Positions 5,208 to 48,665 of a stretch of DNA of 64,000 bases are shown here, in pieces. Both the position numbers and the translations under genes were made by a program. Below the pieces are notes generated by a model. That model had not been told where the DNA came from and did no database searches. It saw only the letters and a list, made by a program, of their open reading frames with translations. Within the stretch, counting starts at the first letter, position 1, and every line of letters begins with the position of its first letter. Origin of the DNA: a virus (Duplodnaviria; Heunggongvirae; Uroviricota; Caudoviricetes); the IMG/VR virus record IMGVR_UViG_3300044824_000100, positions 1-64,000 of that record. The stretch is one strand, 5' to 3'.

Positions 5208-5211
5208 GTGA

Positions 5212-8746: not shown

Positions 8747-8803
8747 AACTCTCTACGTCGTACATCCTGTAGGGAGGAGATAACTTCTGAAGATCAAGAT
8801 AGT

Positions 8804-23681: not shown

Positions 23682-24006
23682 GTATTGACTCCACCACTTC
23701 GAGTGATTGATATATGCCTAACATGTAGTACCGCTTCGTGTCGCTGAACGGCTCCCACCTCCACGTAAACGTCTTTGGGACTTCTCTCCTAAGCTTGAGG
23801 AGCTCAACTCTCATCTTCCCTATGTCGTTCTTGTTCGGCTTGCTCATACACAGGTTCAAGCATCTACTCATAGCCCTCACATACGCGAACCTGTTCCTCT
23901 CGTTGTATATATTTGAGGCCGAATAAGTACACGTAGAGTCGATCAAGATTCTCACCATCTCAGCTATTTCTTTCTTCTGACTCATATGACAACCGCTATA
24001 AGCCAC
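23599..24006 (-). CDS. hypothetical protein
   Basis: 135 aa; overlaps downstream ORF by 83 nt. Confidence 0.35.
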   Translation of the reverse strand: MAYSGCHMSQKKEIAEMVRILIDSTCTYSASNIYNERNRFAYVRAMSRCLNLCMSKPNKNDIGKMRVELLKLRREVPKTFTWRWEPFSDTKRYYMLGIYQSLEVVESIHVRFEKGYSWADEYFVRSILGVKRYEV

Positions 24007-30772: not shown

Positions 30773-30819
30773 AGATTCCTCCGTATCATTATTGTGTCGG
30801 GATATAGGCCAGGGTGCTG

Positions 30820-30834
30820 GCGTAGCAGTGTCAG
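30820..30834 (+). repeat. 15-nt repeat GCGTAGCAGTGTCAG, copy 1
   Basis: Exact 15-mer; 5 identical copies in window, all same orientation. Confidence 0.9.
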
Positions 30835-30994
30835 TAGCGGCGGCAGTACTTGCTGGCTGCATCTGTCATAAACATTTTAGATAGTAGGGTCTCGGAGCTT
30901 GAAATATTAAAATCAGAGAGCAAGTATATGAGGGTGTAGAGAGAGTTATATTTAGTGGAATTGCGCTCGGTTGGTGAACTCATTATAGTATTCT

Positions 30995-31032
30995 ACAAAA
31001 GAAAAACCCCGCCAACACTTAAGTTGACGGGG
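30995..31032 (-). terminator. rho-independent terminator after lipoprotein gene
   Basis: Minus strand: GC-rich hairpin CCCCGTCAAC/GTTGGCGGGG followed by TTTTTCTTTTGT. Confidence 0.65.
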
Positions 31033-31058
31033 TCTGCGATTATATCGCTCGGAGGAGA

Positions 31059-31754
31059 TTAGTGATAGAAGTATTCAGACGGTACCGCTGCACCGTTCAT
31101 GTACAGTTGCAGAGCTTGGTTACCGTTGTACTGGTAGAAGTCGAGCTCGAACCCATATACACCCTGGTTAAGCTGATACACCTTGGATACAGTGGTTGCC
31201 CCATGTTGGCCGTCGTTGTTTAGCTGAGCGCCATTGAGCGTTAAGATGGCACCATCATCGGATGTGAGGATCATTGGATAGAATCCCGGTGACGGACTGA
31301 CGAAATACCCGTGACACTTCAGGATGAAGAAGTTCTGGAACTGGTCCCGTAAATCGTCGTTAGTACTATCAGGTAAGATACTTAATCCTGAATTAGTAGA
31401 TGAGTTGGCCACGTCAAAGTCTCCATTGTAGGTGAAAGACCCGATGGATGTGGTATCGCCACTCACGTTGATAGCACTGTTGTTGAAGGCAGCGATGGAG
31501 ACAACCGTATTCTGTCCAGCTGCATTGATACCCCAGAGTTGGCAATCCAGTCCCTGCGTGATTGGGTCCGTACCATTGAACACAAGCTGCTGGTTGTATT
31601 GAGCAACCTCAGCCGCGATCGCTGCCTGTGTGGGATTAGATGACGGTGACTGAGCAGAAGGACCAGCAGGACCTTGCAGTCCCTGTGTTCCTTGCCCACA
31701 TCCAGATAGATAGACCAAGGCGAACACTACTGTGAATAAACCAATCTTTTTCAT
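31059..31754 (-). CDS. lipoprotein with collagen-like G-x-x segment and C-terminal PA14-like carbohydrate-binding domain
   Basis: Signal peptide plus LSGC lipobox, GQGTQGLQGPAGPS, PA14 core GYFVSPSPGFYPMILTSDDGAILTLNG...GVYGFELDFYQYNG; GGAGGAAAT SD. Confidence 0.65.
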   Translation of the reverse strand: MKKIGLFTVVFALVYLSGCGQGTQGLQGPAGPSAQSPSSNPTQAAIAAEVAQYNQQLVFNGTDPITQGLDCQLWGINAAGQNTVVSIAAFNNSAINVSGDTTSIGSFTYNGDFDVANSSTNSGLSILPDSTNDDLRDQFQNFFILKCHGYFVSPSPGFYPMILTSDDGAILTLNGAQLNNDGQHGATTVSKVYQLNQGVYGFELDFYQYNGNQALQLYMNGAAVPSEYFYH

Positions 31755-31950
31755 ATTTCCTCCGATGTTGTATTACGTGAGGAATATTAGATTCGGAAGA
31801 CTAGTTATCCGGGTAGATTGTATTTTTGCCTGAACCCGTCATAAAAACGATACGTGTCGAGATGCTCCGTTGGCCTAATAGGGTTACGACATGAACCCTT
31901 TGCTTGGCCGTCCCATGCATTAGCTAAGAGAAGAAGCAAGAGTCTTAAGT

Positions 31951-32103
31951 CTAGCATACGCCCTTGTATTTGTCCTTAAATTTGTTCCAGAAACTCACGG
32001 TACGGATAGAGCTATCCTCCACGAGAGGAGATGGCCAAAGCGCCTTTGCTCTGCCATTGTGTAGTTGACTTAAGAGGTTAAGTAAGCGCTTCAAGTCTAA
32101 CAC
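31951..32103 (-). CDS. small ORF, tandem paralog 1 of 3 (50 aa, GTG start)
   Basis: Third unit of about 150-bp tandem repeat; VLDLKRLLNLLSQLHNG...FWNKFKDKYKGVC. Confidence 0.35.
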   Translation of the reverse strand: MLDLKRLLNLLSQLHNGRAKALWPSPLVEDSSIRTVSFWNKFKDKYKGVC

Positions 32104-32246
32104 AGCTTATATTTGTCCTTAAACTTAGACCAAAATCTATTAGTGTGCACCTCGCCATCTTTCGCAATGGGAGATGCCCACGACACCTTAGCACTACCAT
32201 CGTGCAAGTAGGATAGTAAACTAAGTAAACGCTTTAAGTCTAGCAT
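32097..32246 (-). CDS. small ORF, tandem paralog 2 of 3 (49 aa)
   Basis: MLDLKRLLSLLSYLHDG...FWSKFKDKYKLC; ATG overlaps upstream stop as ATGCTAG. Confidence 0.4.
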   Translation of the reverse strand: MLDLKRLLSLLSYLHDGSAKVSWASPIAKDGEVHTNRFWSKFKDKYKLC

Positions 32247-32392
32247 ACGCCGTCGTATTTATCCTTGAATTTACTCCAGAAAGACGCTGTGTTTATAAAC
32301 TCATCCTCGACGATCGGAGATGGCCATTGCGATCTCGAATGACCATCGTGCAACTTGCTCAGAAATTTAAGTAAACGTTTTAAGTCTATCAT
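32240..32392 (-). CDS. small ORF, tandem paralog 3 of 3 (50 aa)
   Basis: MIDLKRLLKFLSKLHDG...FWSKFKDKYDGVC. Confidence 0.4.
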   Translation of the reverse strand: MIDLKRLLKFLSKLHDGHSRSQWPSPIVEDEFINTASFWSKFKDKYDGVC

Positions 32393-32544
32393 TGGTTGAT
32401 GATTGCACGGATGGTATCAACAGGCGGCGCACGATCTCGCCACCGGATACTCCGACTATGAATATGTATGTTAGATATGCTACTATAATGTGCATAAGTG
32501 TAATATGTGGAACCAGATGCAGAACACCTGGTTCCACATTGATC

Positions 32545-33039
32545 TTAGCTGTTCACCATCGAGCGAAGCTCTGCTGGCAGAGCTGCGACATCGATAGGCT
32601 TAGCAGGTTTGCGGGATGCTTTGATCTCGATGACGCGAGCATCGATAAAGGTCTGGATCTCAGCCTTCTCCGATGGATCGGTCTTGGTGCCGAGAAGAGC
32701 ACGCATCGCCTTGAGTGAAGCATCGCTGGAACCGACGCGGCTTCCAGGATTCTTGGCTTCGTACTTCACTCCACCGTTAAGACGTTCGTCTTTACGGAGC
32801 CAGTTGCTCGTGAGGCCAGAGCAGTACGTGCGGAGTTCTGCTTCGGTCGTGAACGACTTGTCGAGAGTGATTGACCCACTGTTGAAGCCTTCAACGAGGA
32901 TGTTGGTCACTTGAGCACGGAGCTCACGGTTTAACTGGGAAGAATATCCTTCACCTTCGATGACGGAGATTCCAGCTTCGGATAGAACAGAAGAAACAGC
33001 GGAAAATACTGCTTCTTTCTGTGATTGTTGAGTACTCAT
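32545..33039 (-). CDS. hypothetical protein, paralog of 40693..41151
   Basis: Shares SNWLRKD.LNGGV.Y.AKNPGSR.GS.DAS..AMR.LL....DPSE..EIQ.FID.R and LPAEL with the other copy. Confidence 0.5.
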   Translation of the reverse strand: MSTQQSQKEAVFSAVSSVLSEAGISVIEGEGYSSQLNRELRAQVTNILVEGFNSGSITLDKSFTTEAELRTYCSGLTSNWLRKDERLNGGVKYEAKNPGSRVGSSDASLKAMRALLGTKTDPSEKAEIQTFIDARVIEIKASRKPAKPIDVAALPAELRSMVNS

Positions 33040-33102
33040 CTAAAAATGCCCTCCTTATAGGGTTTATGAGTGTTTGTTGACATGGGCAAATAGTTTCAGG
33101 AA

Positions 33103-33438
33103 TTATTCGTCCATGATATCTCTTAGTGCGTCATCTACCTCCATGGTAAATATGCGTTCTAAGATATTTTTACAGTTTTCGAAGTCAGGCAGCTCGAGTG
33201 TATTAACTAGTTCGTCTCGGTTGGCTCCGTACAGATTCTTGATATGTCCCCATCTCTGGTACTGGTCAGTACGCAAGTTACGCTGTTCTTGCTTCTGCTG
33301 CTCCTTAGCATGATGAGGGTTGAGACGAGTTCTCAAGCCATAATGATGGTCCATCTGAACTATGTAATCCATAGTTTTCTTTATGTGACTCCACTTGTCA
33401 AAAGTGGATAGCGCGGTAAATTCATCTTCAGTCATGGT
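33103..33438 (-). CDS. hypothetical protein
   Basis: Listed ORF trimmed to MTEDEFTAL Met. Confidence 0.35.
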   Translation of the reverse strand, partial: TMTEDEFTALSTFDKWSHIKKTMDYIVQMDHHYGLRTRLNPHHAKEQQKQEQRNLRTDQYQRWGHIKNLYGANRDELVNTLELPDFENCKNILERIFTMEVDDALRDIMDE

Positions 33439-33682
33439 GCTTCTCCGCATATAGCACGTACAAGCGATTAAGCAGCATCCTGTACCATGACGTGTTGTAC
33501 ACGTAATTGACTGCGACACTTTTAATGTCTAGTAGGGTAAGCAATCTCATGAAGTGAGAGCATGCATCTTCCATAGCTAGGTGATTTTTCATGGCTTCCA
33601 CACCTTCAGCTTCCACAGAAGTTCGCACAGATCGTATGTACGACCGTATCCATTCTCTCTGTCGTTCTTGTTCTTGCTCCAT
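33428..33682 (-). CDS. hypothetical protein
   Basis: 84 aa. Confidence 0.35.
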   Translation of the reverse strand: MEQEQERQREWIRSYIRSVRTSVEAEGVEAMKNHLAMEDACSHFMRLLTLLDIKSVAVNYVYNTSWYRMLLNRLYVLYAEKHHD

Positions 33683-33842
33683 CTACCGCTCAACAAGGTA
33701 CATTTGATTGCCCAGTTATTAGCCCATGAATCATCAAACTCACTACTGAAGATCCTCCAATGTATCTGAACCGTCCCGTCGGACGCTAACATGGAACCAC
33801 GCAAAAAATTCAGCGATAGATTCATCTAGCCTATTATACAAA

Positions 33843-34232
33843 TTACGATTGGATTGCTTGATCGATGATGTACGACGCAAGCTTGTCCTGGAAATCTTCG
33901 GCAATCATGTTTATGATCAAATGTTGGTCCATAAATATCTTGGCGGAAAGAAGTGGTAAATTGTCCACGATAGAAAATCCCAGTTGCCAACATCTCCACT
34001 CAGAGATGTCAGAATCGGACCACTTACTTCTAGTGACCATTAAACATTTGTATGTTTTCAAGTCGAAGAAAAGTTGAACAGGGATAATATTGTGATCTGC
34101 CTTGCAATGAAAAGTAAACCTCAACGCCATTTGGGCATTCACGGAGTCAACGATGTATATTGTCCTACTTTCCTCAGAGAATGCCACCCTTCTTGCCTTA
34201 AACTCATTGACGACACTCATGCGAACGCACAC
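33843..34232 (-). CDS. hypothetical protein
   Basis: 129 aa. Confidence 0.35.
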   Translation of the reverse strand: MCVRMSVVNEFKARRVAFSEESRTIYIVDSVNAQMALRFTFHCKADHNIIPVQLFFDLKTYKCLMVTRSKWSDSDISEWRCWQLGFSIVDNLPLLSAKIFMDQHLIINMIAEDFQDKLASYIIDQAIQS

Positions 34233-34275
34233 ATGAGGAACACGATGACGATGATGAGGTAGAAGATGGGAATAG

Positions 34276-34521
34276 TCATCCGATCAGTTTAATGCCATAG
34301 TATATGAACCAACCGCCGCACCAAGCAACGCCAAATAAGGCTAATAACTTCAGCCAGGTTGGGTAAATTGACGGGTTGGCTCTGTGCATGCTCACGCTGA
34401 ATAGGTTCAGGAGTAGACAGATAAACTGTAACGCCGTGTTGAATACCATGTTCACTCCTTCTCTACTACGACTTGAGGCTGGAAACCATTCGCCAGGCAC
34501 TCGGCGTAGTATTCCTTGCAA
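34276..34521 (-). CDS. small membrane protein
   Basis: Two predicted TM helices. Confidence 0.4.
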   Translation of the reverse strand: MQGILRRVPGEWFPASSRSREGVNMVFNTALQFICLLLNLFSVSMHRANPSIYPTWLKLLALFGVAWCGGWFIYYGIKLIG

Positions 34522-34682
34522 ACCAAAACTTCTCTGGCGATCTCACTGCCGTGGCCGATAACCTCATCCTGACCCGTCTTGTAGTTGGGACGAGTATAGG
34601 TCGTGTTGCGGATATGGGTAACGAGACGATGGGCGGGTTCGTTGGGCTTGGTCATTTTTCCGGTCTTGGCGCATTTGAACAT
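34452..34682 (-). CDS. hypothetical protein
   Basis: Start set at MFKCAKTGK Met with AAGAGGGAAA SD. Confidence 0.4.
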   Translation of the reverse strand: MFKCAKTGKMTKPNEPAHRLVTHIRNTTYTRPNYKTGQDEVIGHGSEIAREVLVCKEYYAECLANGFQPQVVVEKE

Positions 34683-34696
34683 ATTAGTTTCCCTCT

Positions 34697-34891
34697 TTAA
34701 ATTTGGCAAGAACTTCGCCAACTTCGTTTGTGATCTCTACGAAATGCCCTTTCGGAGTGCCCTTTCGGAGTGCGCTGACACATGTCGCTTGCGGTCCTCA
34801 GAGCTTGTTCAAAGCTGGACTCATCAACTGCTTCAATGAGGTATTTAGCCGGACCTGGATTCTTCATTCGCATGCTCACTGTGCATTTCAT
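34697..34891 (-). CDS. hypothetical protein with C-terminus altered by 13-bp tandem duplication
   Basis: Removing one copy of TGCCCTTTCGGAG restores a more protein-like C-terminus HFVEITNEVGEVLAKFKEGN ending at the SD of the next gene. Confidence 0.35.
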   Translation of the reverse strand: MKCTVSMRMKNPGPAKYLIEAVDESSFEQALRTASDMCQRTPKGHSERAFRRDHKRSWRSSCQI

Positions 34892-34924
34892 ACGCGTTCT
34901 CCTATTTCCTAGACAGGAATAGAT

Positions 34925-35281
34925 TCAGTAATGATTCGCATAGATGTTGAGTTTATCGAGTACCCTACGAAGTGAATATTTCGCCTTGGCGTCCTTAGAT
35001 TCCTTGATTTCATTCCTCTTAGCCAGTCTGAACTCGTCATACCGTCTTAACATCTGATACTGCGTCACGTTTGCACCAACGTCGAGCCATCTCTGAATGA
35101 CGTCCCAACCCAGCGATTGGAACTCGAACACTCCATACTCTGAGTCCTCAGTAGCGGCCATGAACTTATAGATAGACCTCTTGTAAGACCTATCCGTTCC
35201 CGTCACCATAGCACCTATCTTGAAGGGAATCTTACTCTTCTTAGGTTTCTTTTTTATCGGCTTTTTCTTCTTGGACGGCAT
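34925..35281 (-). CDS. hypothetical protein with Lys/Pro-rich N-terminus
   Basis: 118 aa. Confidence 0.4.
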   Translation of the reverse strand: MPSKKKKPIKKKPKKSKIPFKIGAMVTGTDRSYKRSIYKFMAATEDSEYGVFEFQSLGWDVIQRWLDVGANVTQYQMLRRYDEFRLAKRNEIKESKDAKAKYSLRRVLDKLNIYANHY

Positions 35282-35326
35282 TTCCCTATTATACTGATTG
35301 GATCAGGACCCTGATATAATAGGAAA

Positions 35327-35632
35327 ATGGAGTACTTAACGTTCAACTCAGGATCTCAGTGGACTCTTAACAAGTCCGTTAAGCCTCCTTATTCCTCTCC
35401 CGAGGGAGGCGTATCTACTCCAAGGGATTACAGCGAACCTGGCAATGATTTTAAAGCCTACTCTAGTGTTACTGGTCAACTGCACGAAGACCACGGACAG
35501 AAGGGTTCAGTTCACGGGCAACCAGGTAATAAGAGAGCTCCTAAGCAAGGATTGCCTAGAAAGCATTGGGGCAAACCCGCTACTAAACTTCCCTCTGCTG
35601 CTGCGAACGCAGATCCTGGACTTGGGATTTAA
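35327..35632 (+). CDS. hypothetical low-complexity protein
   Basis: Plus-strand ORF with CCCTGATATAATAGG promoter-like motif upstream; divergent from minus gene. Confidence 0.3.
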   Translation: MEYLTFNSGSQWTLNKSVKPPYSSPEGGVSTPRDYSEPGNDFKAYSSVTGQLHEDHGQKGSVHGQPGNKRAPKQGLPRKHWGKPATKLPSAAANADPGLGI

Positions 35633-35783
35633 CTCTTTGCTCATACCCTATGAAGCTCCATTGGTTATCGAATCGTTCAAAATCTATTATATCGAATAGG
35701 TGCAACAGAAACAACAGACGCGTGAGCTGATTGTGGTTAACGTAGTGAGGCAACCTACTGCGGGTAAGATTGTTAGTCTTCAT
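35583..35783 (-). CDS. small ORF, paralog pair member
   Basis: LTRLLFLLHLFDIIDFERFDNQWS. Confidence 0.35.
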   Translation of the reverse strand: MKTNNLTRSRLPHYVNHNQLTRLLFLLHLFDIIDFERFDNQWSFIGYEQRVKSQVQDLRSQQQREV

Positions 35784-35979
35784 GTGTTAATCCCAGTCCA
35801 GTAAGAGATTTGATCCTGAGCGCGTATGCGTCGTAGCTCCAATGATTATTGATGTCTTCCCAATAGATTATATCTAGTAGATGAAGTAGAAATATTAAGC
35901 TAGCCAACGGGGGAACGTCATAGTTCCTACATGCTATACTATGGCGAATAAGTAGGTCTTTTTCCGTCACTCTAGACAA
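35773..35979 (-). CDS. small ORF, paralog pair member
   Basis: LASLIFLLHLLDIIYWEDINNHWS aligns with neighbour. Confidence 0.35.
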   Translation of the reverse strand: MSRVTEKDLLIRHSIACRNYDVPPLASLIFLLHLLDIIYWEDINNHWSYDAYALRIKSLTGLGLTHED

Positions 35980-36305
35980 TCTTTAGTTACCTTTGCTAGC
36001 CACTTCATCTTTTTCCTGGAAACCCTTATACTGCCGTTACGAGCCGCATCCCACATCTGGTACACCTGGTGATGGATAGCATAATGGAAGTCGGTGATGT
36101 CGAATGTCTCTAATGCCTTGCTAACGAATTCCTGAGTGAGCTCATCATGCTTCAGGCCAAGCTTACTCATTTCCTTTTCTCTCTGAGACAGATAAAATGC
36201 TATGTAGCGACATTTGTCGTTTGGGTTGAGCTTAGATAGCGTATCGTAGAATAGTTTACGAAACTTATCCAGATCGCCGGCGGAACAGACGAATCTTCTT
36301 CTCAT
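35967..36305 (-). CDS. hypothetical protein
   Basis: 112 aa. Confidence 0.35.
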   Translation of the reverse strand: MRRRFVCSAGDLDKFRKLFYDTLSKLNPNDKCRYIAFYLSQREKEMSKLGLKHDELTQEFVSKALETFDITDFHYAIHHQVYQMWDAARNGSIRVSRKKMKWLAKVTKDCLE

Positions 36306-36676
36306 GTGTCGATATTAGGATCAGAATCTTGGATTGCCCGCTCCAGGCAATAGGTTGCGTACGCCTCATCTATCATAGCGTTGTATCTGTCCTCTGGTTC
36401 TACGAAGAAGCTAAACCATTTCCAATTAGTGCCACCATGATGCATGGAGCTACCAAATTCGCGCCCGTGAACATTACCAGCATCCCATGGTTTAACGCTG
36501 CAAACTTGTCCGTCGCTGATTCCTAGCTCGAGCATTTGGTTTGCAACAACATCTCGCCCGAGTTCGAAATGCCATTTATTGCGCACTGCTCGCATCTGGA
36601 AGAAGTTAAATACCCACCCGTTTATTCTGACTTCATGTATGCTCAACCACTCCACATCACCCTTCATGCCAACCAC
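36302..36676 (-). CDS. hypothetical protein
   Basis: 124 aa. Confidence 0.4.
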   Translation of the reverse strand: MVGMKGDVEWLSIHEVRINGWVFNFFQMRAVRNKWHFELGRDVVANQMLELGISDGQVCSVKPWDAGNVHGREFGSSMHHGGTNWKWFSFFVEPEDRYNAMIDEAYATYCLERAIQDSDPNIDT

Positions 36677-36802
36677 TCCTTTTGCAGAACTCCGATATCT
36701 TTAGCTTGGTCATACCAGTTGGTACGTCAAGTTTACTTAATAGGTTTGACAAGTGGTAACAGGCCATATACATTGCGTAATTCTTCGGCCACGGACCCGA
36801 GT

Positions 36803-36973
36803 TCATCTCTTATCCCATGTCATGGCAAGTCTGTAAGCACTCCGTCTACTCATAAACGATAGTTTTCGTCTATTCATATTGAGGGCGAACAGTAGTGTAG
36901 TTAGCTTAAGAATCGAGTCCATTCGCCACTCTCGCCACATCTTTCTGTGCTTACGCTTCTGGTTACCACTCAT
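36803..36973 (-). CDS. small basic ORF
   Basis: ATGA start/stop overlap with upstream small ORF. Confidence 0.3.
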   Translation of the reverse strand: MSGNQKRKHRKMWREWRMDSILKLTTLLFALNMNRRKLSFMSRRSAYRLAMTWDKR

Positions 36974-37134
36974 CCTATTTCATCCTCGGGTCTGAAATAG
37001 GCGTACGAGCCAATCAGTTTGCTTAACAGCTTGCACAGTTGCCACCATTTGTTGGCATCCGCTCCAGCCGCAACGTGGCTTGACGAGTGCCATTCCCGCA
37101 TATGCATGTCTATCTGTTCTGGGGTTGGTCTCAT
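36970..37134 (-). CDS. small ORF (54 aa), paralog of 37131..37286
   Basis: MRPTPEQIDMHMREWH...WWQLCKLLSKLIG; a different frame from the listed 36980..37162 ORF. Confidence 0.4.
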   Translation of the reverse strand: MRPTPEQIDMHMREWHSSSHVAAGADANKWWQLCKLLSKLIGSYAYFRPEDEIG

Positions 37135-37286
37135 CTTCTACTCTTGTTGAATAAGCCCGCACCTATCAGTTTAGATAGGAGGAGTTCAAGACGTGACCAC
37201 TTATAAGCGTCTGTACCTGGTACGACCTTCTCGCAGAAGTGCCAGCGCTCCAGCATCATATCCACATCCATCGGCGTTGGTCTCAT
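37131..37286 (-). CDS. small ORF (51 aa), paralog of 36970..37134
   Basis: MRPTPMDVDMMLERWH...WSRLELLLSKLIG; ATGA coupling. Confidence 0.4.
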   Translation of the reverse strand: MRPTPMDVDMMLERWHFCEKVVPGTDAYKWSRLELLLSKLIGAGLFNKSRR

Positions 37287-37323
37287 GTAGATGATTCGTA
37301 TCAGGATGATAGTAGCACGGCCG

Positions 37324-37338
37324 GCGTAGCAGTGTCAG
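37324..37338 (+). repeat. 15-nt repeat GCGTAGCAGTGTCAG, copy 2
   Basis: Exact match. Confidence 0.9.
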
Positions 37339-37520
37339 CGTAGCGGGTTGTTTGCGTATCGCAAGCGGACGATACGACCTATGTTAATACCTTGCTCTTC
37401 GGAGATTATGCTTAGTTTCCACAGCATTCTTACTAGATTGCGAACGGCTTTGGATTGATACGTGTTTATGGAGATGCGACTCATCCACGGGTTATACCAA
37501 TGAAATGGCGGAGCTTCCAT
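37335..37520 (-). CDS. hypothetical small ORF
   Basis: 61 aa. Confidence 0.3.
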   Translation of the reverse strand: MEAPPFHWYNPWMSRISINTYQSKAVRNLVRMLWKLSIISEEQGINIGRIVRLRYANNPLR

Positions 37521-37544
37521 GCTCCTATCGGGGGAAATGACTCA

Positions 37545-37700
37545 GTGAATCATGGCGACGATAAGGCAGTACACAGTCATGATACCACATAGCATGCAGT
37601 ACCAACCAGGAAACACAGACGGATTTCTTGCCGCTCTCACAAACCAATAGAAGTTAAGTCCGGCACAGCAGAAATCCATAATCGATAGTGCACTATGCAT
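37545..37700 (-). CDS. small membrane peptide (52 aa)
   Basis: Hydrophobic, Cys-rich; shorter than the 60-aa listing threshold. Confidence 0.3.
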
Positions 37701-37709
37701 AGTTCCCTT

Positions 37710-38141
37710 TCAAGATGCGAGTTCAGAGAGGTTATCAACTTCGCCAGTTCTTACGTACTTATGATACAGTCGATCCCATACCAGCTTGCGAAACTTACTA
37801 TTCGCCTCATCAGCCGTATTCATGACATGTCTATTGTTCTGGTTATCGCTTGCAACCTTAGAATAGACTACATAGTTATTACCCTCGATGACTGTTTCAT
37901 AGTCATCGCCAAACTCCGGAATGCCAAAGGCATCGATGACGTTTATATCCCCAGCAATGAGTTGAGCTTTGATGTGAGCAAATCTCTCGGTGCGTTCAGC
38001 GATGGCTTTCTTCTCTGCCTCTTGTCGCTTTGTATGGGACCTAGCAATAGCATCAAGCTCTTGCTCGTACTTGGCTTTCATCTCCTGGGAGATATCATCC
38101 TTATCTAACTGATCGCACAGCCAATCTTCTCTACTCTTCAC
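37710..38141 (-). CDS. hypothetical coiled-coil protein
   Basis: 143 aa. Confidence 0.45.
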   Translation of the reverse strand: MKSREDWLCDQLDKDDISQEMKAKYEQELDAIARSHTKRQEAEKKAIAERTERFAHIKAQLIAGDINVIDAFGIPEFGDDYETVIEGNNYVVYSKVASDNQNNRHVMNTADEANSKFRKLVWDRLYHKYVRTGEVDNLSELAS

Positions 38142-38383
38142 AAGTTCTCCTCAGGATCGCCATTATTAGGGCAAGTGTGGGATGCATCGGGGTCATTAGT
38201 TTCCCACCCGCATTGAGCACAGCACTCGTGGTATTCTTCAGAACGGTGGGGAGAGATGGCACGCTCGTCGCACTCCTCACACTCGTCGTCAACCATAGAG
38301 TCCCAACCATCAATCCACTCGTGATTGCATTTAGGACACTTGTACTCGTTGATAAACCATTTGCCTGTGCGTATCGCTTTCAT
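38138..38383 (-). CDS. zinc-ribbon protein
   Basis: CPKCNHEW...CEECDE...CAQCGW. Confidence 0.4.
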   Translation of the reverse strand: MKAIRTGKWFINEYKCPKCNHEWIDGWDSMVDDECEECDERAISPHRSEEYHECCAQCGWETNDPDASHTCPNNGDPEENL

Positions 38384-38583
38384 GCGTGTTCTTCCTGGTT
38401 ATCGCAACCAGCACACGTGACATCGCTGCATGATTCGCATATGCCGTTGAGTTCGCAGCTGAACTCTGCCGTTACGATGCTATAGTCTTCAACTTGGGCA
38501 ATGAGCGCAGACTCAATCTCTTCTTGTTGCTCATCAGTTAGATCGCTGTCAACGATCACGGTGAATGTGATTTTGCGTGACAT
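38380..38583 (-). CDS. small acidic Cys-rich protein
   Basis: 67 aa. Confidence 0.35.
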   Translation of the reverse strand: MSRKITFTVIVDSDLTDEQQEEIESALIAQVEDYSIVTAEFSCELNGICESCSDVTCAGCDNQEEHA

Positions 38584-38712
38584 GATTCACCTCTTCTTGC
38601 TTGACTTAGAGCGCGAGCTTTACATACATCGAGCTGATTGAGGACATATAACAGCATGAATACACTCTGATCAGCGTCAACTGCCAACAAAGGCTCTAAT
38701 GGCGACCTTTTC

Positions 38713-38898
38713 CTAGCCACGGTATACCGGCCTTCTTTGCACGTACTCTATGAACTCGTACGGGTCGACTCGTGTTCCACTCCTAATGCCGAGTCTTTGC
38801 AGTATGTAGAAGAGTTTACCTGCAATGAGCCATGACTTATTCACCCTACCGTTAGTATGTAGCCCTACCGCCATAAGTTCTTCATATACCTTTCCCAC
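38713..38898 (-). CDS. small ORF of LLxxLGI(R/K)S family
   Basis: GKLFYILQRLGIRSGTRV. Confidence 0.4.
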   Translation of the reverse strand: MGKVYEELMAVGLHTNGRVNKSWLIAGKLFYILQRLGIRSGTRVDPYEFIEYVQRRPVYRG

Positions 38899-39050
38899 GT
38901 GAAATAACTCGAAGGCATAGCTGTCACCTTTAGCTTCGAAATCAGTGAAATCAGCCTACGTATGGCAATCGTCTTCTTGTGGGCAAGGACGTCATAGCTA
39001 GGATCACTCATAATTGCTCTGATGCATCGAGATATGAGGTTTAATCCCAA
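38865..39050 (-). CDS. small ORF of LLxxL family
   Basis: AIRRLISLISKLKV. Confidence 0.3.
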   Translation of the reverse strand: MGLNLISRCIRAIMSDPSYDVLAHKKTIAIRRLISLISKLKVTAMPSSYFTWERYMKNLWR

Positions 39051-39270
39051 GTTGACTCAATAGTTGACCCAGCATTGCACATCTCCTCAGGTTAAGGCGT
39101 CTGCATCCCCTGCATTCCCTATGCCGCCTACTGAAGTAGAAAGATGTCTCAACCCTATTCCATATCCAATTCCATATCCAAATCCTCACCCACTTAGTGG
39201 CTTCCTTGTGAACGAAGGCGTAGTAGGAAAGACTACCACCTAGGCATTTCCCACACTCACTCTTCACCAT
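39004..39270 (-). CDS. small ORF of LLxxLGI(R/K) family
   Basis: AMLGQLLSQLGIKPH. Confidence 0.35.
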   Translation of the reverse strand: MVKSECGKCLGGSLSYYAFVHKEATKWVRIWIWNWIWNRVETSFYFSRRHRECRGCRRLNLRRCAMLGQLLSQLGIKPHISMHQSNYE

Positions 39271-39553
39271 CTATCCTCCCCTGTGTCTGCTGGTGTAACG
39301 TATAGCCTCTGTCATGGTGACGTACAGCTTCCCTACATTCAAGCAGCGCAATATGAACATCAACAGCCAAACGCTTCTCATAGGTGCATCTGCATCGTTC
39401 TTCACCTACGCAACCGCTTCCTATATCGCTCTGTATATTCCTTACATTGATACCAATCCCACGTCCACCTAGCGATACCTAATTTCTGCAACAGGACCAT
39501 CAAGAACGACGCATTCTGTGTTTGACTAAATTTCACATGTGCCTTTACTACTT

Positions 39554-39757
39554 TCACCTGCGCACCTGCGATATATACCGAGTGCCATCTTGGACCGCTC
39601 TAAATGCTGCCCTTATAGCCTCTACCTGGGCTGTACGCTCATCCTCCCATACATCTAGCTTCATGAGGAGCACAAACAACCCATGTTTCATACCGCAGGA
39701 TATCCTGCAAGATGCATTGTGGTAGTGGGTCTTCGACGCGTAACCTGCTGATTTCAT
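39554..39757 (-). CDS. small ORF of LLxKL family
   Basis: GLFVLLMKLDVWEDE. Confidence 0.3.
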   Translation of the reverse strand: MKSAGYASKTHYHNASCRISCGMKHGLFVLLMKLDVWEDERTAQVEAIRAAFRAVQDGTRYISQVRR

Positions 39758-39830
39758 TGGAGCACCCTTGACAAACCCCTAGCATGGGCCGACGCCCGCC
39801 GAGCAACCAACCTTGCCCTACGCCTTGAAA

Positions 39831-40016
39831 TCACAGGGTATCACCGATTGGCGGGTACGCGAAGGTGAGCGATACTTCCCCTTCCCCTAGGAGCTTTGAC
39901 AAGAAATACGTGAGCTCCATCACCCTCGCGTCGTGATCATCTCTGCCCATCGTGTTGATGTACTTCCCGTAGTGGAGTTGAGACAGCATGATATCTACCT
40001 CTAGCCTCGTTCTCAT
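39831..40016 (-). CDS. small ORF of LLxKL family
   Basis: ELTYFLSKLLGEGEV; promoter-like ATCCTGATCCTAAT upstream. Confidence 0.35.
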   Translation of the reverse strand: MRTRLEVDIMLSQLHYGKYINTMGRDDHDARVMELTYFLSKLLGEGEVSLTFAYPPIGDTL

Positions 40017-40095
40017 TGGAGGAATTAGGATCAGGATATATGCTGGATAGTGGCTGATGTAGACCTGATGGTGGGCTGAGGGGTAGCCGAGCCTG

Positions 40096-40110
40096 GCGTA
40101 GCAGTGTCAG
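40096..40110 (+). repeat. 15-nt repeat GCGTAGCAGTGTCAG, copy 3
   Basis: Exact match. Confidence 0.9.
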
Positions 40111-40156
40111 CAGGGGATCGGTGGGGTATCAGCCTATCCTTGGCTGGGTTGCGGGA

Positions 40157-40339
40157 CTACTTGACGAGCTTGGTAAGGTCGCAGATGCAGGAGCTTGTGT
40201 TGCGATCCATCTTGCCCTCGTTAGGTAGGCACTTGGGTCTGCACGCTTGTCTGTCCTGCGCATCTAGATGGTCTGCGAGAGTGACGACGCCCAAAGCAAA
40301 CACGAACATGAACGCGTATATGGCTATGATTATCTTCAC
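40157..40339 (-). CDS. small secreted protein
   Basis: Signal peptide MKIIIAIYAFMFVFALGVVTLA, 4 Cys. Confidence 0.4.
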   Translation of the reverse strand: MKIIIAIYAFMFVFALGVVTLADHLDAQDRQACRPKCLPNEGKMDRNTSSCICDLTKLVK

Positions 40340-40371
40340 AGTTCCTCCACTATTCCAGGCGACATCTTGAC

Positions 40372-40521
40372 GATGTTGTAATAGTCCTCGGAGATGTCTC
40401 CGTCCGTTAGCGACTCAGTTTGGACCTGCATTGCGTCCAGCAGCTGGGCGTCATGCGGGAACTTGAGCGGCTTGTCCGTCTCAAACTCGATCGTCACTCT
40501 GTACTTAGGCATAAGTTCCTC
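40372..40521 (-). CDS. small ORF (49 aa)
   Basis: GGAGGAACTT SD and TCCTGATCTTATATAA promoter-like motif upstream. Confidence 0.35.
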
Positions 40522-40633
40522 CGATGTTGTTATATAAGATCAGGACAACGAGGTCGGATCTTGCGTGTGGCATAAGCACAGCATTGCACCTTAGTGCGTT
40601 GCCCTGATGGTTGTATATAGAGTCGGGATATAG

Positions 40634-40648
40634 GCGTAGCAGTGTCAG
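40634..40648 (+). repeat. 15-nt repeat GCGTAGCAGTGTCAG, copy 4
   Basis: Exact match. Confidence 0.9.
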
Positions 40649-40692
40649 TGGTGGGGACCAGGCGCTATGCCCGATCCCCACTCAACTCAATC

Positions 40693-41151
40693 TCAGCTGC
40701 CGTACTTAGCTTGCAACTCAGCCGGAAGATCAGAGACATTGATCGTCACGGTTTTCGCAGGGCGGATCTCGCTGAGGCGCTTGTCGATGAAGGATTGGAT
40801 CTCTTCGCGCTCAGACGGATCGTTCTTGGTCTTGAGCAACTCTCTCATTGCTCGGACGGATGCATCGGTAGATCCAGCGCGACTGCCTGGGTTCTTGGCG
40901 ACATACTGAACACCACCGTTCAGTTCTTTGTCCTTGCGAAGCCAGTTGCTCTGCAACCCGCTCACGTATGCTTTCAACTCAGAGTCGGTATACTCGCGTG
41001 AGAGTTCGATCTGCTTAGACTTGAAACCTTCGAACAAGATCTGATTCACCTGAGCGCGTTCTTCCTTGGTCGGCTTGAATGCACCGTCGGTTTCACCGCA
41101 GACGTTGATCAAAGCTTGGCGAACTGCATCTTTCTGTTTCATCTTGGTCAT
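40693..41151 (-). CDS. hypothetical protein, paralog of 32545..33039
   Basis: See 32545..33039; GGAGGAACAGAGT SD. Confidence 0.5.
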   Translation of the reverse strand: MTKMKQKDAVRQALINVCGETDGAFKPTKEERAQVNQILFEGFKSKQIELSREYTDSELKAYVSGLQSNWLRKDKELNGGVQYVAKNPGSRAGSTDASVRAMRELLKTKNDPSEREEIQSFIDKRLSEIRPAKTVTINVSDLPAELQAKYGS

Positions 41152-41318
41152 ACTCTGTTCCTCCGAACATTGTTATCGTTATGTACTTGATTAGATTCAG
41201 GATCTTATATCTTTGAACCATCATCTTGCTTACAACTTAATATAGAGTCGGGTAATCATGCAATCCGGATTGGATGGGGATTCTACATGTAGAGTCAGGA
41301 TAGCTGCTATGCCCCTGT

Positions 41319-41333
41319 GCGTAGCAGTGTCAG
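41319..41333 (+). repeat. 15-nt repeat GCGTAGCAGTGTCAG, copy 5
   Basis: Exact match; followed on plus strand by perfect hairpin GGTAGGAC-TACG-GTCCTACC (41337-41356). Confidence 0.9.
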
Positions 41334-41373
41334 CCAGGTAGGACTACGGTCCTACCCAGCCAACTGTTCTATT

Positions 41374-41528
41374 ACTATCCTGTCCTGCTCCAACCGCTCG
41401 TGCACTGCTCGCAGTCGCACTCGAAGTCTGCCTCATACAGCGACTCGTTCCTCGCCTGCTCCTTCTCGTCCTCCGCCTTCAAGAATGCCTCAAACCTCGC
41501 CATCAATGCTACATCATCTTTACTCATG
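41374..41528 (-). CDS. small acidic Cys-rich ORF (50 aa)
   Basis: ATGA coupling to upstream gene. Confidence 0.3.
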
Positions 41529-41751
41529 CGGCCTTCCTTTCAGTTGAGTATTCGATCTCTGTCTCCAATACCTTCACCAGCATTCCCTGCCTGTGAGCGA
41601 TGCTGAGCAGGATCTGGTTGCGGGCGCAGAGCAATCTCTCCAGGTGTATGGTTCTCCCAGCACGATGCTCTCTGCTCAGCTCAACACCCGCTTTGGCATA
41701 AGCCATCGTCAGCTCGCGTATCTCCAGCTTCAAACTCTCTTTAGTTCGCAT
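41524..41751 (-). CDS. hypothetical protein
   Basis: 75 aa, first gene of minus block next to divergent region. Confidence 0.4.
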   Translation of the reverse strand: MRTKESLKLEIRELTMAYAKAGVELSREHRAGRTIHLERLLCARNQILLSIAHRQGMLVKVLETEIEYSTERKAA

Positions 41752-42010
41752 ACGTTCTCTCCTTATATCTATCCTTAGGTTCGGGCACGGTCAGACCCAG
41801 TCTGAGTGGTTCTAGTTGCGCCCAATACTCTATCGTTTCAGGAATGGCCGTGTCATCGCTGACCTGTGTCAAAACAGGGCCCGCTGGCCTCGTCTTACAA
41901 GGGATCCCTTGAGTCGGGACCGGTACCCACGGCGAAGACTTTCTGTATATACACTTTTCCTATAGGTTCACAGGTACCCTGTACCCAACCCACACCGGTA
42001 TAATATAAAC

Positions 42011-42124
42011 ATGTTTGACGATCCCTACTACAACCTACTCGTACTCCTCGTCAAGCTCAACGTAGTCCACCACGCCATAGCCCACGCTGCATACAACAAC
42101 GGCTATAACACATACTCCTATTAG
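42011..42124 (+). CDS. small ORF of LLxKL family (37 aa)
   Basis: YNLLVLLVKLNVVHH; GGTATAATATAAAC immediately before ATG. Confidence 0.35.
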   Translation: MFDDPYYNLLVLLVKLNVVHHAIAHAAYNNGYNTYSY

Positions 42125-42166
42125 GTTCAACCAGGTACCAGTACCCATTTTCGTATAATATAAAAA

Positions 42167-42319
42167 ATGGAAAAACGCAAGGCCTTCGGCCACCTCATCA
42201 CTCTCCTCTTCAAGCTCGGCGCCACCAGGTATGTCCACATCCCCGTCGTCAGCAACGCCTACCATCTCGAAGACTACGAAAATCTCATGGGCGGTCTCAA
42301 GTATCGGACCTACCGATGA
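42167..42319 (+). CDS. small ORF of LLxKLG family (50 aa)
   Basis: FGHLITLLFKLGATRYVH; CGTATAATATAAAAA immediately before ATG; upstream module duplicated from previous gene. Confidence 0.35.
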   Translation: MEKRKAFGHLITLLFKLGATRYVHIPVVSNAYHLEDYENLMGGLKYRTYR

Positions 42320-43594: not shown

Positions 43595-43729
43595 GTGGCA
43601 ATACGCGTAACATTTAACAGAGCTACAATTTATAAGCCAGGCGTATACGGACCAACTAAGCCGTGGCATTTCCAGCTGCTAATGTTCTTGAGCAAGCTAG
43701 ATATCAAGGCTAGATACAGTGAGATGTAA
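43595..43729 (+). CDS. chimeric small ORF: copy of the first 17 sheath codons fused to a family motif
   Basis: VAIRVTFNRATIYKPGVY matches the sheath N-terminus MAINVTFNGATIYKPGAY (about 84 percent nt identity over 56 nt), then WHFQLLMFLSKLDIKA. Confidence 0.35.
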   Translation: MAIRVTFNRATIYKPGVYGPTKPWHFQLLMFLSKLDIKARYSEM

Positions 43730-45575: not shown

Positions 45576-45827
45576 TTATTTTTTGTCCCATTTGAAATCT
45601 TTCTTAATATCCTCTACCTCAACCTCGTTATCGATGAGGTAATGATGCGCCAGAACATCTTGCGCCATCTTCAATCTCTGTTCCCGACTTGGAGGTATCG
45701 GGTTTAGGAACTCAGGCAAGCATATAGCGCGGAATGGACATCTCTCGCAGCGCTTGGAGCTCATGCAGTGCCCATCTGTGGACGCTATCTCCTCTAGGAT
45801 ATTCTTGTCGGAGGTGGAGAGTGCCAT
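45576..45827 (-). CDS. Cys-rich small protein, paralog of 45827..46075
   Basis: ILEEIASTDGHCMSSKRCERCPFRAIC. Confidence 0.4.
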   Translation of the reverse strand: MALSTSDKNILEEIASTDGHCMSSKRCERCPFRAICLPEFLNPIPPSREQRLKMAQDVLAHHYLIDNEVEVEDIKKDFKWDKK

Positions 45828-46075
45828 CAGTCAGCCTCGAATATCTTATCGACGGCTATATCGCCCAGTTTACTAGTAGCAGCTTCTTTATACTTTATAT
45901 CTGCCTCTTCTTCACTTAGGTTTTCTATGTTTAACGCTTCTACACAGCTCATGTATTTACCGTCATCTGACCTTATGAGGTTACCTAGGGGACAGCTTAT
46001 ACATACAGCGGGGGTTGCCCAGCAGCAACTACCCTCCTCGGCGATAATACGCTCAAGAATTTTCACACCATCCAT
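45827..46075 (-). CDS. Cys-rich small protein, paralog of 45576..45827
   Basis: ILERIIAEEGSCCWATPAVCISCPLGNL. Confidence 0.4.
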   Translation of the reverse strand: MDGVKILERIIAEEGSCCWATPAVCISCPLGNLIRSDDGKYMSCVEALNIENLSEEEADIKYKEAATSKLGDIAVDKIFEAD

Positions 46076-47117: not shown

Positions 47118-48665
47118 ATGCCTCAAGCCGTCTCACGCAGACAATATAGAATGATGATGGCTATCGTGCACGGCAACGTGAAGGACGGTCCTCGCGGACG
47201 TCCTCCCAAGTCTGTCGCTGCTAAATACACCGATCCAGGTAAAGACGCTGCAGAATCCAAGCATAACGATCGCGGCGGAACGTGGGGCGAGAAGCACCAC
47301 AAGAAGAACAAAGAAAAAGTTCAAGCAGATCGCATCAGCAGGAAGAAGTCCAAGAAGGAACTTAAGAAATCCTTTGAAGAGTATATGGAGAAGAAGCACA
47401 AGACCAATAACTGTGCAGCTGTCCTAGTTATGGATCAGCACAATAGAATTCTCCTAGGAACTCACAATAAGGGTGGCTTAGCATTCCCTGGTGGGCACTG
47501 CCATGAAGATGAAGGCTTTGAACAGGGTGCTATCAGAGAGGCCAGCGAAGAAACTGGTTGTCCTGTAAGGATCAGCGCCGAGATATTCAGAGGCAAGACC
47601 AACGGAAACAACACTGTTGTATACCTAGGCGAAATCGTTCATGGGAAGCCTAAAAACACCAAGAGCGATCACGGCAAAGAATCTATGACCGATTGGAAGT
47701 GGCACGAGATGGATGAGATCCCGTGGAAAGAACTTCGCGACTGTTGCAGAGCTCCTATCAGCGACTTTGTATCCAAGAGATTTGGAAAGTCTCTAAAGGG
47801 TATGATCGCTATGGAGAAGTTAGAAAAGAACATCATCCGCCAGAAGTCTGACGCTGTGTTTGAAGTAACACACGGAGATGCGCTAAGGCTCGTTGGCAAC
47901 GGCATGTTCAGAACCCTGCGCAAAGTTGTAGCAGGTATGCAGGACGAAGAGTTTAAGGATGTACAGATTGATACGTACACCATGAGCATCAGGAGACACA
48001 TGAGCGACGTGTACTCCGGCAGACTTAACGACGGGCATAAGACAGTTTATCAGTTCACCAACAAGTCACTTCCTGAGTTAACCGCAGCCTTGATGAGCGT
48101 GTTCGAATGGTACATGCCGGAAGATGAAAAAGAATTGCACATGCTGGAAGATGCATCGATCGACGATGATGCTGTTCACGGTGGATTGAATCACCTTATT
48201 GAAGAATACAAGCGCCACAACATAGGCGACATCTACGAAGAGATGGAATCGATCCGTGAGACCATGCGTAACGGAATGGCCGTAGACCTTCAACAAATTG
48301 AAGGTCGAATCATGAGTTTATTTGATAAGCTAGAGACAGTAGTTCATGACGTTGCAGGTAAGCATAACCAGCTTGCACAAGCAGTGGGAAAAGACATAGA
48401 CGAGCTCGAAGCAAAACTCAGAGAGCTGCAGAGTAAGATAAGCGACGAGCCAAAGATGCCTCAAACAGTAGAAGCGTTCTCTGCAAATCCTGCCAACAAG
48501 GATAAAGTTCACGACGAGTACTACTCGTACTTGACCAAGCCAAAGATTGAGATTGCTCCAAACGGCAAGATCACTATATCATTTGCCCGTGACTGGCAAG
48601 ACGAAGAGAAATCTAACTTTCTACACGATATGAGAGCAAGGGTTATAAACAAGGCGGGCAAATAA
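47118..48665 (+). CDS. Nudix-hydrolase-domain protein with long coiled-coil C-terminal extension
   Basis: Nudix box GGHCHEDEGFEQGAIREASEETGC in residues about 115-140 of 515. Confidence 0.7.
   Translation: MPQAVSRRQYRMMMAIVHGNVKDGPRGRPPKSVAAKYTDPGKDAAESKHNDRGGTWGEKHHKKNKEKVQADRISRKKSKKELKKSFEEYMEKKHKTNNCAAVLVMDQHNRILLGTHNKGGLAFPGGHCHEDEGFEQGAIREASEETGCPVRISAEIFRGKTNGNNTVVYLGEIVHGKPKNTKSDHGKESMTDWKWHEMDEIPWKELRDCCRAPISDFVSKRFGKSLKGMIAMEKLEKNIIRQKSDAVFEVTHGDALRLVGNGMFRTLRKVVAGMQDEEFKDVQIDTYTMSIRRHMSDVYSGRLNDGHKTVYQFTNKSLPELTAALMSVFEWYMPEDEKELHMLEDASIDDDAVHGGLNHLIEEYKRHNIGDIYEEMESIRETMRNGMAVDLQQIEGRIMSLFDKLETVVHDVAGKHNQLAQAVGKDIDELEAKLRELQSKISDEPKMPQTVEAFSANPANKDKVHDEYYSYLTKPKIEIAPNGKITISFARDWQDEEKSNFLHDMRARVINKAGK

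Follow-up and report, generated by a model that had tools for sequence, protein, structure and literature searches.

What does a DNA word do when a phage repeats it letter for letter while its surroundings drift? This question is raised by positions 1 to 64,000 of the virus record IMGVR_UViG_3300044824_000100 (Caudoviricetes), a 64,000-nt stretch analysed at its full length and hereafter called the window, in which a 15-nt word, here named motif A, recurs in five exact copies. We find that motif A is a real, non-random and deeply conserved feature of one family of uncultivated myoviruses, that its orientation is fixed, and that its distance to a promoter-like sequence downstream, here named box B, is phased with the turns of the DNA helix. 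We therefore lean towards reading motif A as a regulatory element that would act upstream of promoters, as a site in duplex DNA.

Motif A in the window

The minus-strand genes of the window run leftward from ~42.3 kb and the structural genes rightward from 46.1 kb. All five copies of motif A fall in the initial 11.5 kb of this leftward arm and are surrounded by small open reading frames (ORFs) without known families. A first-pass annotation had reported five perfect copies in one orientation, and exact matches are indeed present at 30820, 37324, 40096, 40634 and 41319, reading GCGTAGCAGTGTCAG on the plus strand and CTGACACTGCTACGC on the minus strand, which is the coding one. When as many as three mismatches are tolerated, the window holds seven matches to the 15-mer where 1.3 would be expected, and not one shuffle in 100 gave as many. 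Numbered from right to left, the copies are:

41319..41333, minus strand: motif A copy 1, CTGACACTGCTACGC followed by A; starts 41 nt past the stop of the 50-aa gene 41375-41527
40634..40648, minus strand: motif A copy 2, followed by C; starts 44 nt past the stop of the p152 gene (40693-41151)
40096..40110, minus strand: motif A copy 3, followed by C; starts 46 nt past the stop of gene 40157-40339
37324..37338, minus strand: motif A copy 4, followed by C; ORF 37335-37520 stops at a TGA within the motif
30820..30834, minus strand: motif A copy 5, followed by C; ~170 nt downstream of a strong intrinsic terminator at 31004-31035

The C that follows four of the five copies in the sense direction is the G that the annotation had noted in front of the plus-strand word. 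Each copy had also been placed in a short gap behind a minus-strand stop, which holds for all but copy 5, where no convincing gene stop precedes the motif.

Looser matches add little. A near-copy with one mismatch at 8247-8261 lies in the opposite orientation inside gene 7559-8413, where it supplies the codons Cys-Ser-Ser-Val, and the orthologue in the related locus L229 differs from the motif at four positions; we take it for a coding coincidence. The thought that it might serve as an antisense partner, pairing with RNA of motif A through one G-U pair, was dropped on the same grounds. The site with two mismatches at 50502, inside the sheath gene, is compatible with chance.

Motif A is nearly invariant across a family of uncultivated myoviruses

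An exact-match scan of IMG/VR returned 104 stretches carrying the word, and a scan of Joint Genome Institute (JGI) metagenomes at least 120 more. A locus was kept if it held at least two copies of motif A or a homologue of the neighbouring protein p152, whose gene is:

40693..41151, minus strand: p152, family-wide companion gene with a unit of motif A and box B on both sides; paralogue at 32545-33039

This search of related phages, which the first-pass annotation had proposed, placed motif A at 230 distinct sites in 121 or more metagenomic loci, all belonging to a single family of uncultivated myoviruses of ~150-180 kb; with two mismatches allowed there are ~250 sites against 0.4 expected by chance. 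In IMG/VR, many contigs of 146-177 kb hold four to seven copies, clustered within 10-25 kb. The companion p152 belongs to a family of all-helical early proteins of 150-165 aa with more than 1,000 metagenomic homologues, two or three paralogues per genome and the invariant motif SNWLRKD..LNGG..Y.AKNPGSR.G, and motif A sites typically stand on both sides of its genes.

Across the ~250 sites the full word proves to be 16 bases long, with a practically invariant 13-nt core, GACAC(T/c)GCTACGC. Positions 3-7, 9, 11 and 13 show no variation at all, positions 10, 12, 14 and 15 are variant in one or two sites each, and real variation is limited to positions 1, 2 and 16 and to position 8, where a single lineage accounts for most of the changes from T to C. 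Outside −3 to +16 the information content is at background, so that the flanks are unconserved. Flanks, GC content and promoter-like boxes diverge widely among lineages, and p152 itself retains only 31-86% identity, whereas motif A barely changes; the constraint on it must therefore be far stronger than that on its surroundings. Moreover, motif A sits between co-directional ORFs, is co-directional with p152 in 107 of 107 loci, and never occurs on both strands of one locus. The annotation's contrast between a strict word and degenerate promoter boxes is borne out family-wide. The sequence of motif A was not found in papers of the literature searched.

Motif A is mostly followed by a compact promoter-like box

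The annotation had further described a promoter-like element downstream of each copy. An ATCCYGA box does follow every copy; it is, however, a compact element of 15 nt (ATCCYGAYCNTATAW; window consensus aATCCYGAyCnTAtAw) rather than a sigma-70 −35/−10 pair, it has no conserved −35, and its TATA part is poor behind the copies at 37324 and 30820. Family-wide, box B reduces to CCGA, 3-4 nt and a TATA-like sequence. The boxes behind the five copies, with further boxes in the same gaps, are:

41287..41301, minus strand: box B ATCCTGACTCTACAT; CYGA starts 20 nt past motif A copy 1
41241..41254, minus strand: second box B TACCCGACTCTATA, upstream of p152
41189-41203, minus strand: third, weaker box B
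40615..40629, minus strand: box B ATCCCGACTCTATAT; CYGA starts 7 nt past motif A copy 2
40533..40546, minus strand: second box B GTCCTGATCTTATA; a Shine-Dalgarno sequence comes next, then the ATG that opens gene 40336-40512
40023..40037, minus strand: box B ATCCTGATCCTAATT; CYGA starts 61 nt past motif A copy 3; upstream of gene 39831-40016
37293..37307, minus strand: weak box B ATCCTGATACGAATC; CYGA starts 19 nt past motif A copy 4; ATG at 37286 without a Shine-Dalgarno sequence
30789..30803, minus strand: weak box B ATCCCGACACAATAA; CYGA starts 19 nt past motif A copy 5; a Shine-Dalgarno sequence and an ATG lie beyond it

Across the family, CCGA lies no more than 45 nt downstream of motif A in 164 of the 230 sites. 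Box B also stands without motif A before at least seven other minus-strand genes of the window (for instance at 10828, 14881, 16565, 24529, 26972, 27655 and 29651), ligase and protease genes being among those preceded by a box; none was found before the plus-strand structural genes of the window. Shine-Dalgarno motifs almost always start 11 nt or more past the T of TATA; the ATG distribution peaks at +9 to +11. This placement fits a −10-like role of the TATA part, with transcription predicted to start ~12 nt downstream. Box B is probably the phage's own early/middle promoter class. In the window the boxes linked to motif A have poorer TATA parts (TACA, TAAT, GAAT, AATA) than the boxes without it, which would be typical of factor-dependent promoters, the sample being very small.

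The spacing between motif A and box B follows the DNA helix

Within the window the distance from motif A to CYGA takes the values 7, 19, 19, 20 and 61 nt. Family-wide, distances to the first CYGA are multimodal, with peaks at 7, 15-16 and 25/28 nt, minor peaks at 37-40, 49 and 61 nt, and valleys at 10-12, 20-22 and 30-34 nt. A Rayleigh test at a period of 10.5-11 gave p ~2e-7 in a first data set of 46 clusters and p ~3e-8 in an enlarged set of 137 sequence-independent clusters, defined as sites sharing fewer than ten flanking 8-mers. Against a null in which distances were jittered by ±5.5 nt (periods 9-12), the observed R of 0.35 exceeds both the 95% limit of 0.19 and the maximum of 0.32 in 5000 runs. 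The phasing becomes less sharp if TATA replaces CYGA as the anchor. It can also be followed among orthologous sites: behind the same p152 stem-loop the spacing is 7, 16 or 25 nt, with 14 or 29 nt in locus L047, that is, in steps of ~9-10 nt or roughly one turn of the helix.

A period of ~10.5 nt is the signature of two DNA-bound components that face each other, and it points to an interaction on one face of the helix and hence to DNA, not to a site in RNA. The same period is without rationale if motif A is an RNA site, one of two independent tandem promoters or a nick site. As a probable upstream promoter element, motif A combines two unusual properties, near-absolute invariance and phasing over several turns.

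A probable factor-binding site upstream of putative B promoters

Taken together, these data make us favour, with some reserve, the view that motif A is a recognition site in duplex DNA: an orientation-fixed upstream cis-regulatory element for a subset of B promoters, whose bound factor would contact the complex at box B. In such a scheme a conserved sequence-specific factor would bind motif A and reach the transcription complex from the same helix face, one, two, three or more turns upstream; if transcripts begin ~12 nt past the leading T of TATA, motif A would be centred near −35, −44 or −54. The effect would most likely be activation or timing of the A-linked genes that head the leftward early arm, p152 included. 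Repression through the same geometry would also fit the sequence. The first-pass annotation had proposed a sequence-specific recognition site, and had named an operator, an RNA processing site and an upstream activating element of one early-promoter class. Invariance and orientation lend strong support to the general idea, a specific site linked with a promoter-like box; among the annotation's three mechanisms the upstream activating element fits the phased spacing best, a repressive operator is indistinguishable from it by sequence, and RNA processing is disfavoured. The label early-promoter class reflects position only.

A possible reader of box B emerged from a search prompted by a weak match of the sigma factor of Myxococcus phage Mx1. 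Many lineages that carry motif A encode a sigma-70 homologue of 225-233 aa with Pfam regions 1.2, 2 and 3, which ends directly after region 4.1 with the C-terminal sequence LSPREEKxxRxKFGxx and therefore lacks region 4.2, the −35 reader. Representatives are:

L079 7125-7823, L291 10001-10645 and L292 10001-10699, and further genes in L307, L310, L324 and L344: truncated sigma

More than 115 clusters of this protein were found at 61% identity or above, on contigs of 150-171 kb, none of them with a region-4 domain, and the end point is the same down to 44% identity. Among 80 sigma loci, 22 are truncated and 58 full-length; motif A lies within 3 kb in five of the 22 and in none of the 58, and four more truncated-sigma loci are on large contigs with motif A elsewhere. 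In L291 and L292, which hold three or four motif A sites plus p152, the sigma gene has the early arm with motif A on one side and on the other the structural module, whose gene order is that of the window. L293 has the same gene order, with only 4 kb of early arm and no motif A site. The phage of the window may likewise encode such a truncated sigma, outside the 64 kb. In much of the family the polymerase reading box B would probably be the host core enzyme with this phage sigma, and a sigma without region 4.2 would explain both a box without −35 and the usefulness of an auxiliary upstream anchor.

These observations can be drawn together in a more specific proposal, which we put forward only tentatively: promoter recognition would be split, the sigma without region 4.2 reading box B and a separate conserved protein binding motif A and making up for the lost upstream contact through a flexible tether, from which the helical phasing would result. 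That protein could be p152, a candidate binder by genomic association only.

Several points weigh against a factor-binding site upstream of B promoters. The first is the invariance itself: 13 invariant bp across lineages whose p152 proteins are 31-86% identical are far tighter than usual activator sites, which is unexplained and is the strongest reason to keep rival explanations alive. The phasing test hinges on a regular-expression call of the first box B and on the collapsing of related sites; when sites were clustered by six or more shared 8-mers, an over-aggressive setting that chains sites through box B, p rose to 0.005-0.04. The spacing peaks are broad, about ±2-3 nt, and about a quarter of motif A sites have no box B under the definition used. 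The promoter role and start site of box B are predictions from sequence, all family members being uncultivated. No sigma gene lies within the 64-kb window. p152 gave no Pfam, PHROG, PDB or fold match and the small early ORFs of the window gave no Pfam match, so that no DNA-binding candidate emerged from either.

If this reading nonetheless holds, motif A labels a regulatory class among the early genes of a large phage family, sampled worldwide and without a cultured member. It also offers a handle on how transcription is redirected, with 16 bp to serve as bait, the p152 family as companion and a sigma without its −35 reader. Should split recognition prove true, a compact orthogonal pair of promoter and activator would become possible. 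The 16-mer is in any case a specific metagenomic tag for this phage family and flags the early arm in every case seen. Its near-absolute conservation beside drifting promoter boxes is unusual for a regulatory site and needs explanation.

Alternative explanations

In the alternative that survives best, motif A would be a promoter in its own right, or the upstream half of a promoter, read by another form of RNA polymerase: host sigma-70 holoenzyme with CTGACA or TTGACA as its −35, acting at time zero, a phage sigma, or a phage polymerase, with A as the early and B as the middle promoter of a tandem. An asymmetric 16-mer in many near-identical copies of one orientation has the classic look of a phage-polymerase promoter, yet no column is conserved outside −3 to +16 and there is consequently no fixed-distance −10 or initiation region, nor was an RNA polymerase gene seen in the window. 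The first six bases are CTGACA, with TTGACA in variants, and the closest spacing class, TGACAC-N16-CGA, resembles the geometry of extracytoplasmic function (ECF) sigma promoters; sigma-type pairing of −35 and −10 is, however, intolerant of spacers that differ by 10 and 20 nt. That motif A directly follows true intrinsic terminators in AT-rich lineages, and that canonical sigma-70 promoters are not in excess in the region (21 against 26 expected), would suit a promoter; independent tandem promoters, in turn, give no reason for helical phasing. We consider this alternative unlikely.

Narrower versions were tried and rejected. Pairing motif A as −35 with a downstream TATA as −10 finds no conserved column 16-19 nt downstream and no fixed spacing, and with a spacer of 17 ± 1 bp only a weak 9-of-12 match exists, at one of the five window copies. 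Sigma-54-like, boxA-like and palindromic operator readings, judged by eye on the consensuses, failed on the wrong strand, wrong spacing or lack of a dyad. The ops element recognised by RfaH is GGCGGTAGnnTG, which lies past a promoter and on the non-template strand. An RfaH ops/JUMPStart reading was discarded: two indels are needed for the reverse complement of motif A (GGCGTAGCAGTG) to resemble ops, and with respect to the neighbouring genes it is on the wrong strand.

That motif A acts in RNA, as a cleavage, stability or protein-binding site in read-through polycistronic early transcripts, paired with the upstream stem-loop in the manner of a nut-like site or of a phage endoribonuclease site whose cleavage leaves a protective 3′ hairpin, strikes us as improbable. 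The idea draws on the strict co-directionality of motif A with transcription and on the hairpins that usually stand upstream of it (score 20 against 11 in a control region). Two of these in the window are:

41329..41364, minus strand: stem-loop upstream of motif A copy 1; perfect 8-bp core at 41337-41356; once G-U pairs are counted the stem is 16 bp long and takes in the first 5 nt of motif A
40651..40681, minus strand: 13-bp stem-loop past the p152 stop; ends 2 nt before motif A copy 2; orthologous in L016, L025 and L047

The core of the first is the perfect hairpin, GGTAGGAC-cgta-GTCCTACC, to which the annotation had drawn attention beside the copy at 41319. In 22 of 94 cases the stem takes in the first 2-5 nt of motif A, sometimes through G-U pairs, which only RNA would form. 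The distance between the two elements is nevertheless not fixed: stem 3′ ends are scattered from −24 to +8 relative to motif A, and three of 94 first sites have no stem. In AT-rich lineages the stems are complete intrinsic terminators abutting motif A, true terminators in this position being limited to some lineages (L069, L012, L025), and where the hairpin is a true terminator the motif would rarely be transcribed; in GC-rich lineages most stems lack a T-run. Given the scattered stem ends, and copy 5 lying 170 nt beyond a complete, strong terminator, motif A belongs with the downstream box and not with the hairpin. Nor is it itself an intrinsic terminator (a GC-rich stem-loop with a T/U run), being neither stem nor T-run. 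With Rfam covariance models the sole match at the gathering threshold in the window is a tRNA-Met, and the region 39900-41500 yields nothing even at E ≤ 1. The stem ends, the stemless sites and the empty Rfam result together rule out an RNA motif made of a fixed hairpin and motif A, and phased spacing to a DNA box has no explanation at the level of RNA.

Motif A could also be mainly a recombination substrate, the unit of stem-loop, A and B providing micro-homology for shuffling small early ORFs in the manner of promoter early stem-loops (PeSLs). The units flank small and highly variable ORFs, p152 and motif A persist in related loci that lack homologues of the genes after copies 2-4, and the composite layout of terminator plus promoter is like that of PeSLs (PMC4122927). 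Against this, 13-16 bp are short for homologous exchange, copy-paste mobility would keep the flanks, and recombination requires neither a single orientation nor phasing to box B nor invariance across deep lineages. Shuffling is at best a by-product of a regulatory element, and as the main role of motif A we hold it to be quite improbable.

Hardly credible, finally, is a DNA-processing site (a strand-specific nick of the T5/phiKMV type, a priming site or a replication signal): motif A does resemble the T5 and phiKMV nick sites, and an invariant, strand-specific site in few copies per genome is conserved like an enzyme recognition sequence, but the sites are confined to one early region of 10-25 kb, fall in intergenic gaps without exception and are coupled to, and in phase with, a promoter-like box, and no associated nickase or primase gene was identified.

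Genome setting and other features of the window

The window comes from a novel large myovirus with NAMPT, ribonucleotide reductase, DNA ligase and a 943-aa tail sheath, the last 30% identical to that of Myxococcus phage Mx1. Megablast of positions 36000-42000 found no match among 50,697 phage genomes, tblastn of p152 none among 50,697 phage records, and motif A is absent from the first 50 kb of Mx1. The p152 protein of the window is itself recorded from a JGI contig of 85,577 bp, and further assemblies of this phage are fragmented. Clues to the host are limited to probably mis-binned phage contigs, from a Cytophagales and a Saccharibacteria metagenome-assembled genome.

Where the early arms diverge, two direct repeats of ~60 bp (41955-42012 and 42110-42170) each contain TTATATTATAC and a GGTAC..GGTACC palindrome. 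On the plus strand, TATAAT stands 6-7 nt before the ATG of the small ORFs 42011-42124 and 42167-42319, which look leaderless. The same elements recur in a distant relative (L234 2735-2850 and 3950-4000), where TTATATTATAC precedes the truncated sigma gene. These divergence-point repeats are a candidate immediate-early control region.

Adjoining the structural module, and conserved across the family, is a pair of paralogous Cys-rich proteins of 82-83 aa with the pattern C-x5/6-C-x2-C-x5-C (45576-45827 and 45827-46075, minus strand; also L079 7930-8151), which gave weak, sub-threshold Pfam matches only. At 43596-43648, 53 nt at the start of a small plus-strand ORF are 85% identical to the first tail sheath codons (50382-50434) and may be a duplicated sheath 5′ end. 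Repeats also occur elsewhere in the window: a 9-nt tandem repeat (GGCGGCGTA-like, ~12 or more units) at 24077-24253 inside the minus-strand ORF 23982-24491, and four tandem paralogous mini-genes of ~50 aa each at 31805-32392, whose direct repeats have a period of 143-146 nt.

A cluster of genes related to nicotinamide adenine dinucleotide (NAD) and ADP-ribose extends over 3531-9244, with NADAR (3531-4022), NAMPT (6087-7562), a phosphoribosyl pyrophosphate (PRPP)-synthetase-like gene (7559-8413) and a Macro domain (8804-9244). A 515-aa NUDIX-containing protein, likewise related to NAD/ADP-ribose, is encoded in the structural module (47118-48665). The tRNA-Met (CAU) at 11078-11151 shares a few bases with the end of an ORF that has an HNH endonuclease domain (11142-11780).

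Comparison with known systems

The nearest functional analogue of motif A is found in T4 middle transcription, in which a MotA box is used together with sigma-70 remodelled by AsiA, a process termed sigma appropriation (PMC11598898). Both are phage-specific upstream elements, motif A being predicted to replace −35 recognition as the MotA box does while a −10-like element is kept, and in both cases sigma region 4 is unavailable, being remodelled by AsiA in T4 and absent from the phage sigma here. The MotA box, however, has the consensus (a/t)(a/t)(a/t)TGCTT(t/c)A and is centred at −30 (PMC4122927). Motif A contains TGCT but reads TGCTAC, not TGCTTTA, and is therefore not a MotA box; at 16 bp it is essentially invariant and stands at variable, phased distances, whereas the MotA box is degenerate, ~9 bp long and fixed. 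Its distance to TATA runs from ~12 to more than 60 nt, compared with the fixed distance between MotA box and −10 in T4, and its partner is a CCGA..TATA box instead of a plain sigma-70 −10. No MotA or AsiA homologue was found among the 60 window ORFs scanned against Pfam or PHROGs, the window being 64 kb of a ~170-kb genome.

In layout, the nearest analogue is the PeSL cassette of T4-like phages, a stem-loop followed directly by a sigma-70 early promoter (PMC2839356, PMC4122927). Both are units of stem-loop and promoter repeated in early, apparently plastic intergenic gaps that flank small ORFans. PeSL promoters are of the sigma-70 type (−35, N17, −10), a pattern that motif A does not show, and their sequence differs between phage pairs, whereas motif A is an extra 16-mer that is invariant across a deep family; nor does the stem-loop here keep a fixed distance.

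The promoters of the T7, T3 and SP6 polymerases are, like motif A, near-identical, oriented motifs of 15-23 bp in many copies. The SP6 promoter even shares TGACACT with motif A. Promoters of single-subunit polymerases nevertheless have an initiation region at a fixed distance, while at motif A the information falls to background past +16; motif A is as a rule followed by a separate promoter-like box, and no single-subunit polymerase gene was seen. Since motif A has neither the −30 position nor sigma-70 hexamers nor a contiguous initiation region, we do not file it under the MotA, PeSL or single-subunit classes.

Another −35-less route is provided by T4 gp55, gp33 and gp45 (PMC11598898). There, too, a phage sigma without −35 recognition, gp55, a minimal sigma without region 4, is combined with compact −35-less promoters and an auxiliary activator. 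The sigma described here is unlike gp55 in being group-1-like, with regions 1.2, 2, 3 and 4.1; its auxiliary signal is apparently a fixed DNA sequence and not the DNA-tracking gp45 clamp; and B boxes precede early and metabolic genes, not structural genes, unlike T4 late promoters. If split recognition is true, it would stand as a third −35-independent phage transcription route beside MotA/AsiA and gp55/gp33/gp45.

In geometry, motif A is comparable to CRP-type class I and class II sites and UP elements, whose allowed positions likewise fall at integral helical turns. CRP sites lie at −41.5, −61.5 and −71.5, against predicted centres of motif A at about −35, −44 and −54, and motif A differs in being asymmetric, GC-balanced and invariant. 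Its positions on one helix face at a period of ~10.5 bp are those of a helically phased upstream activator site, and we predict that a protein binds there.

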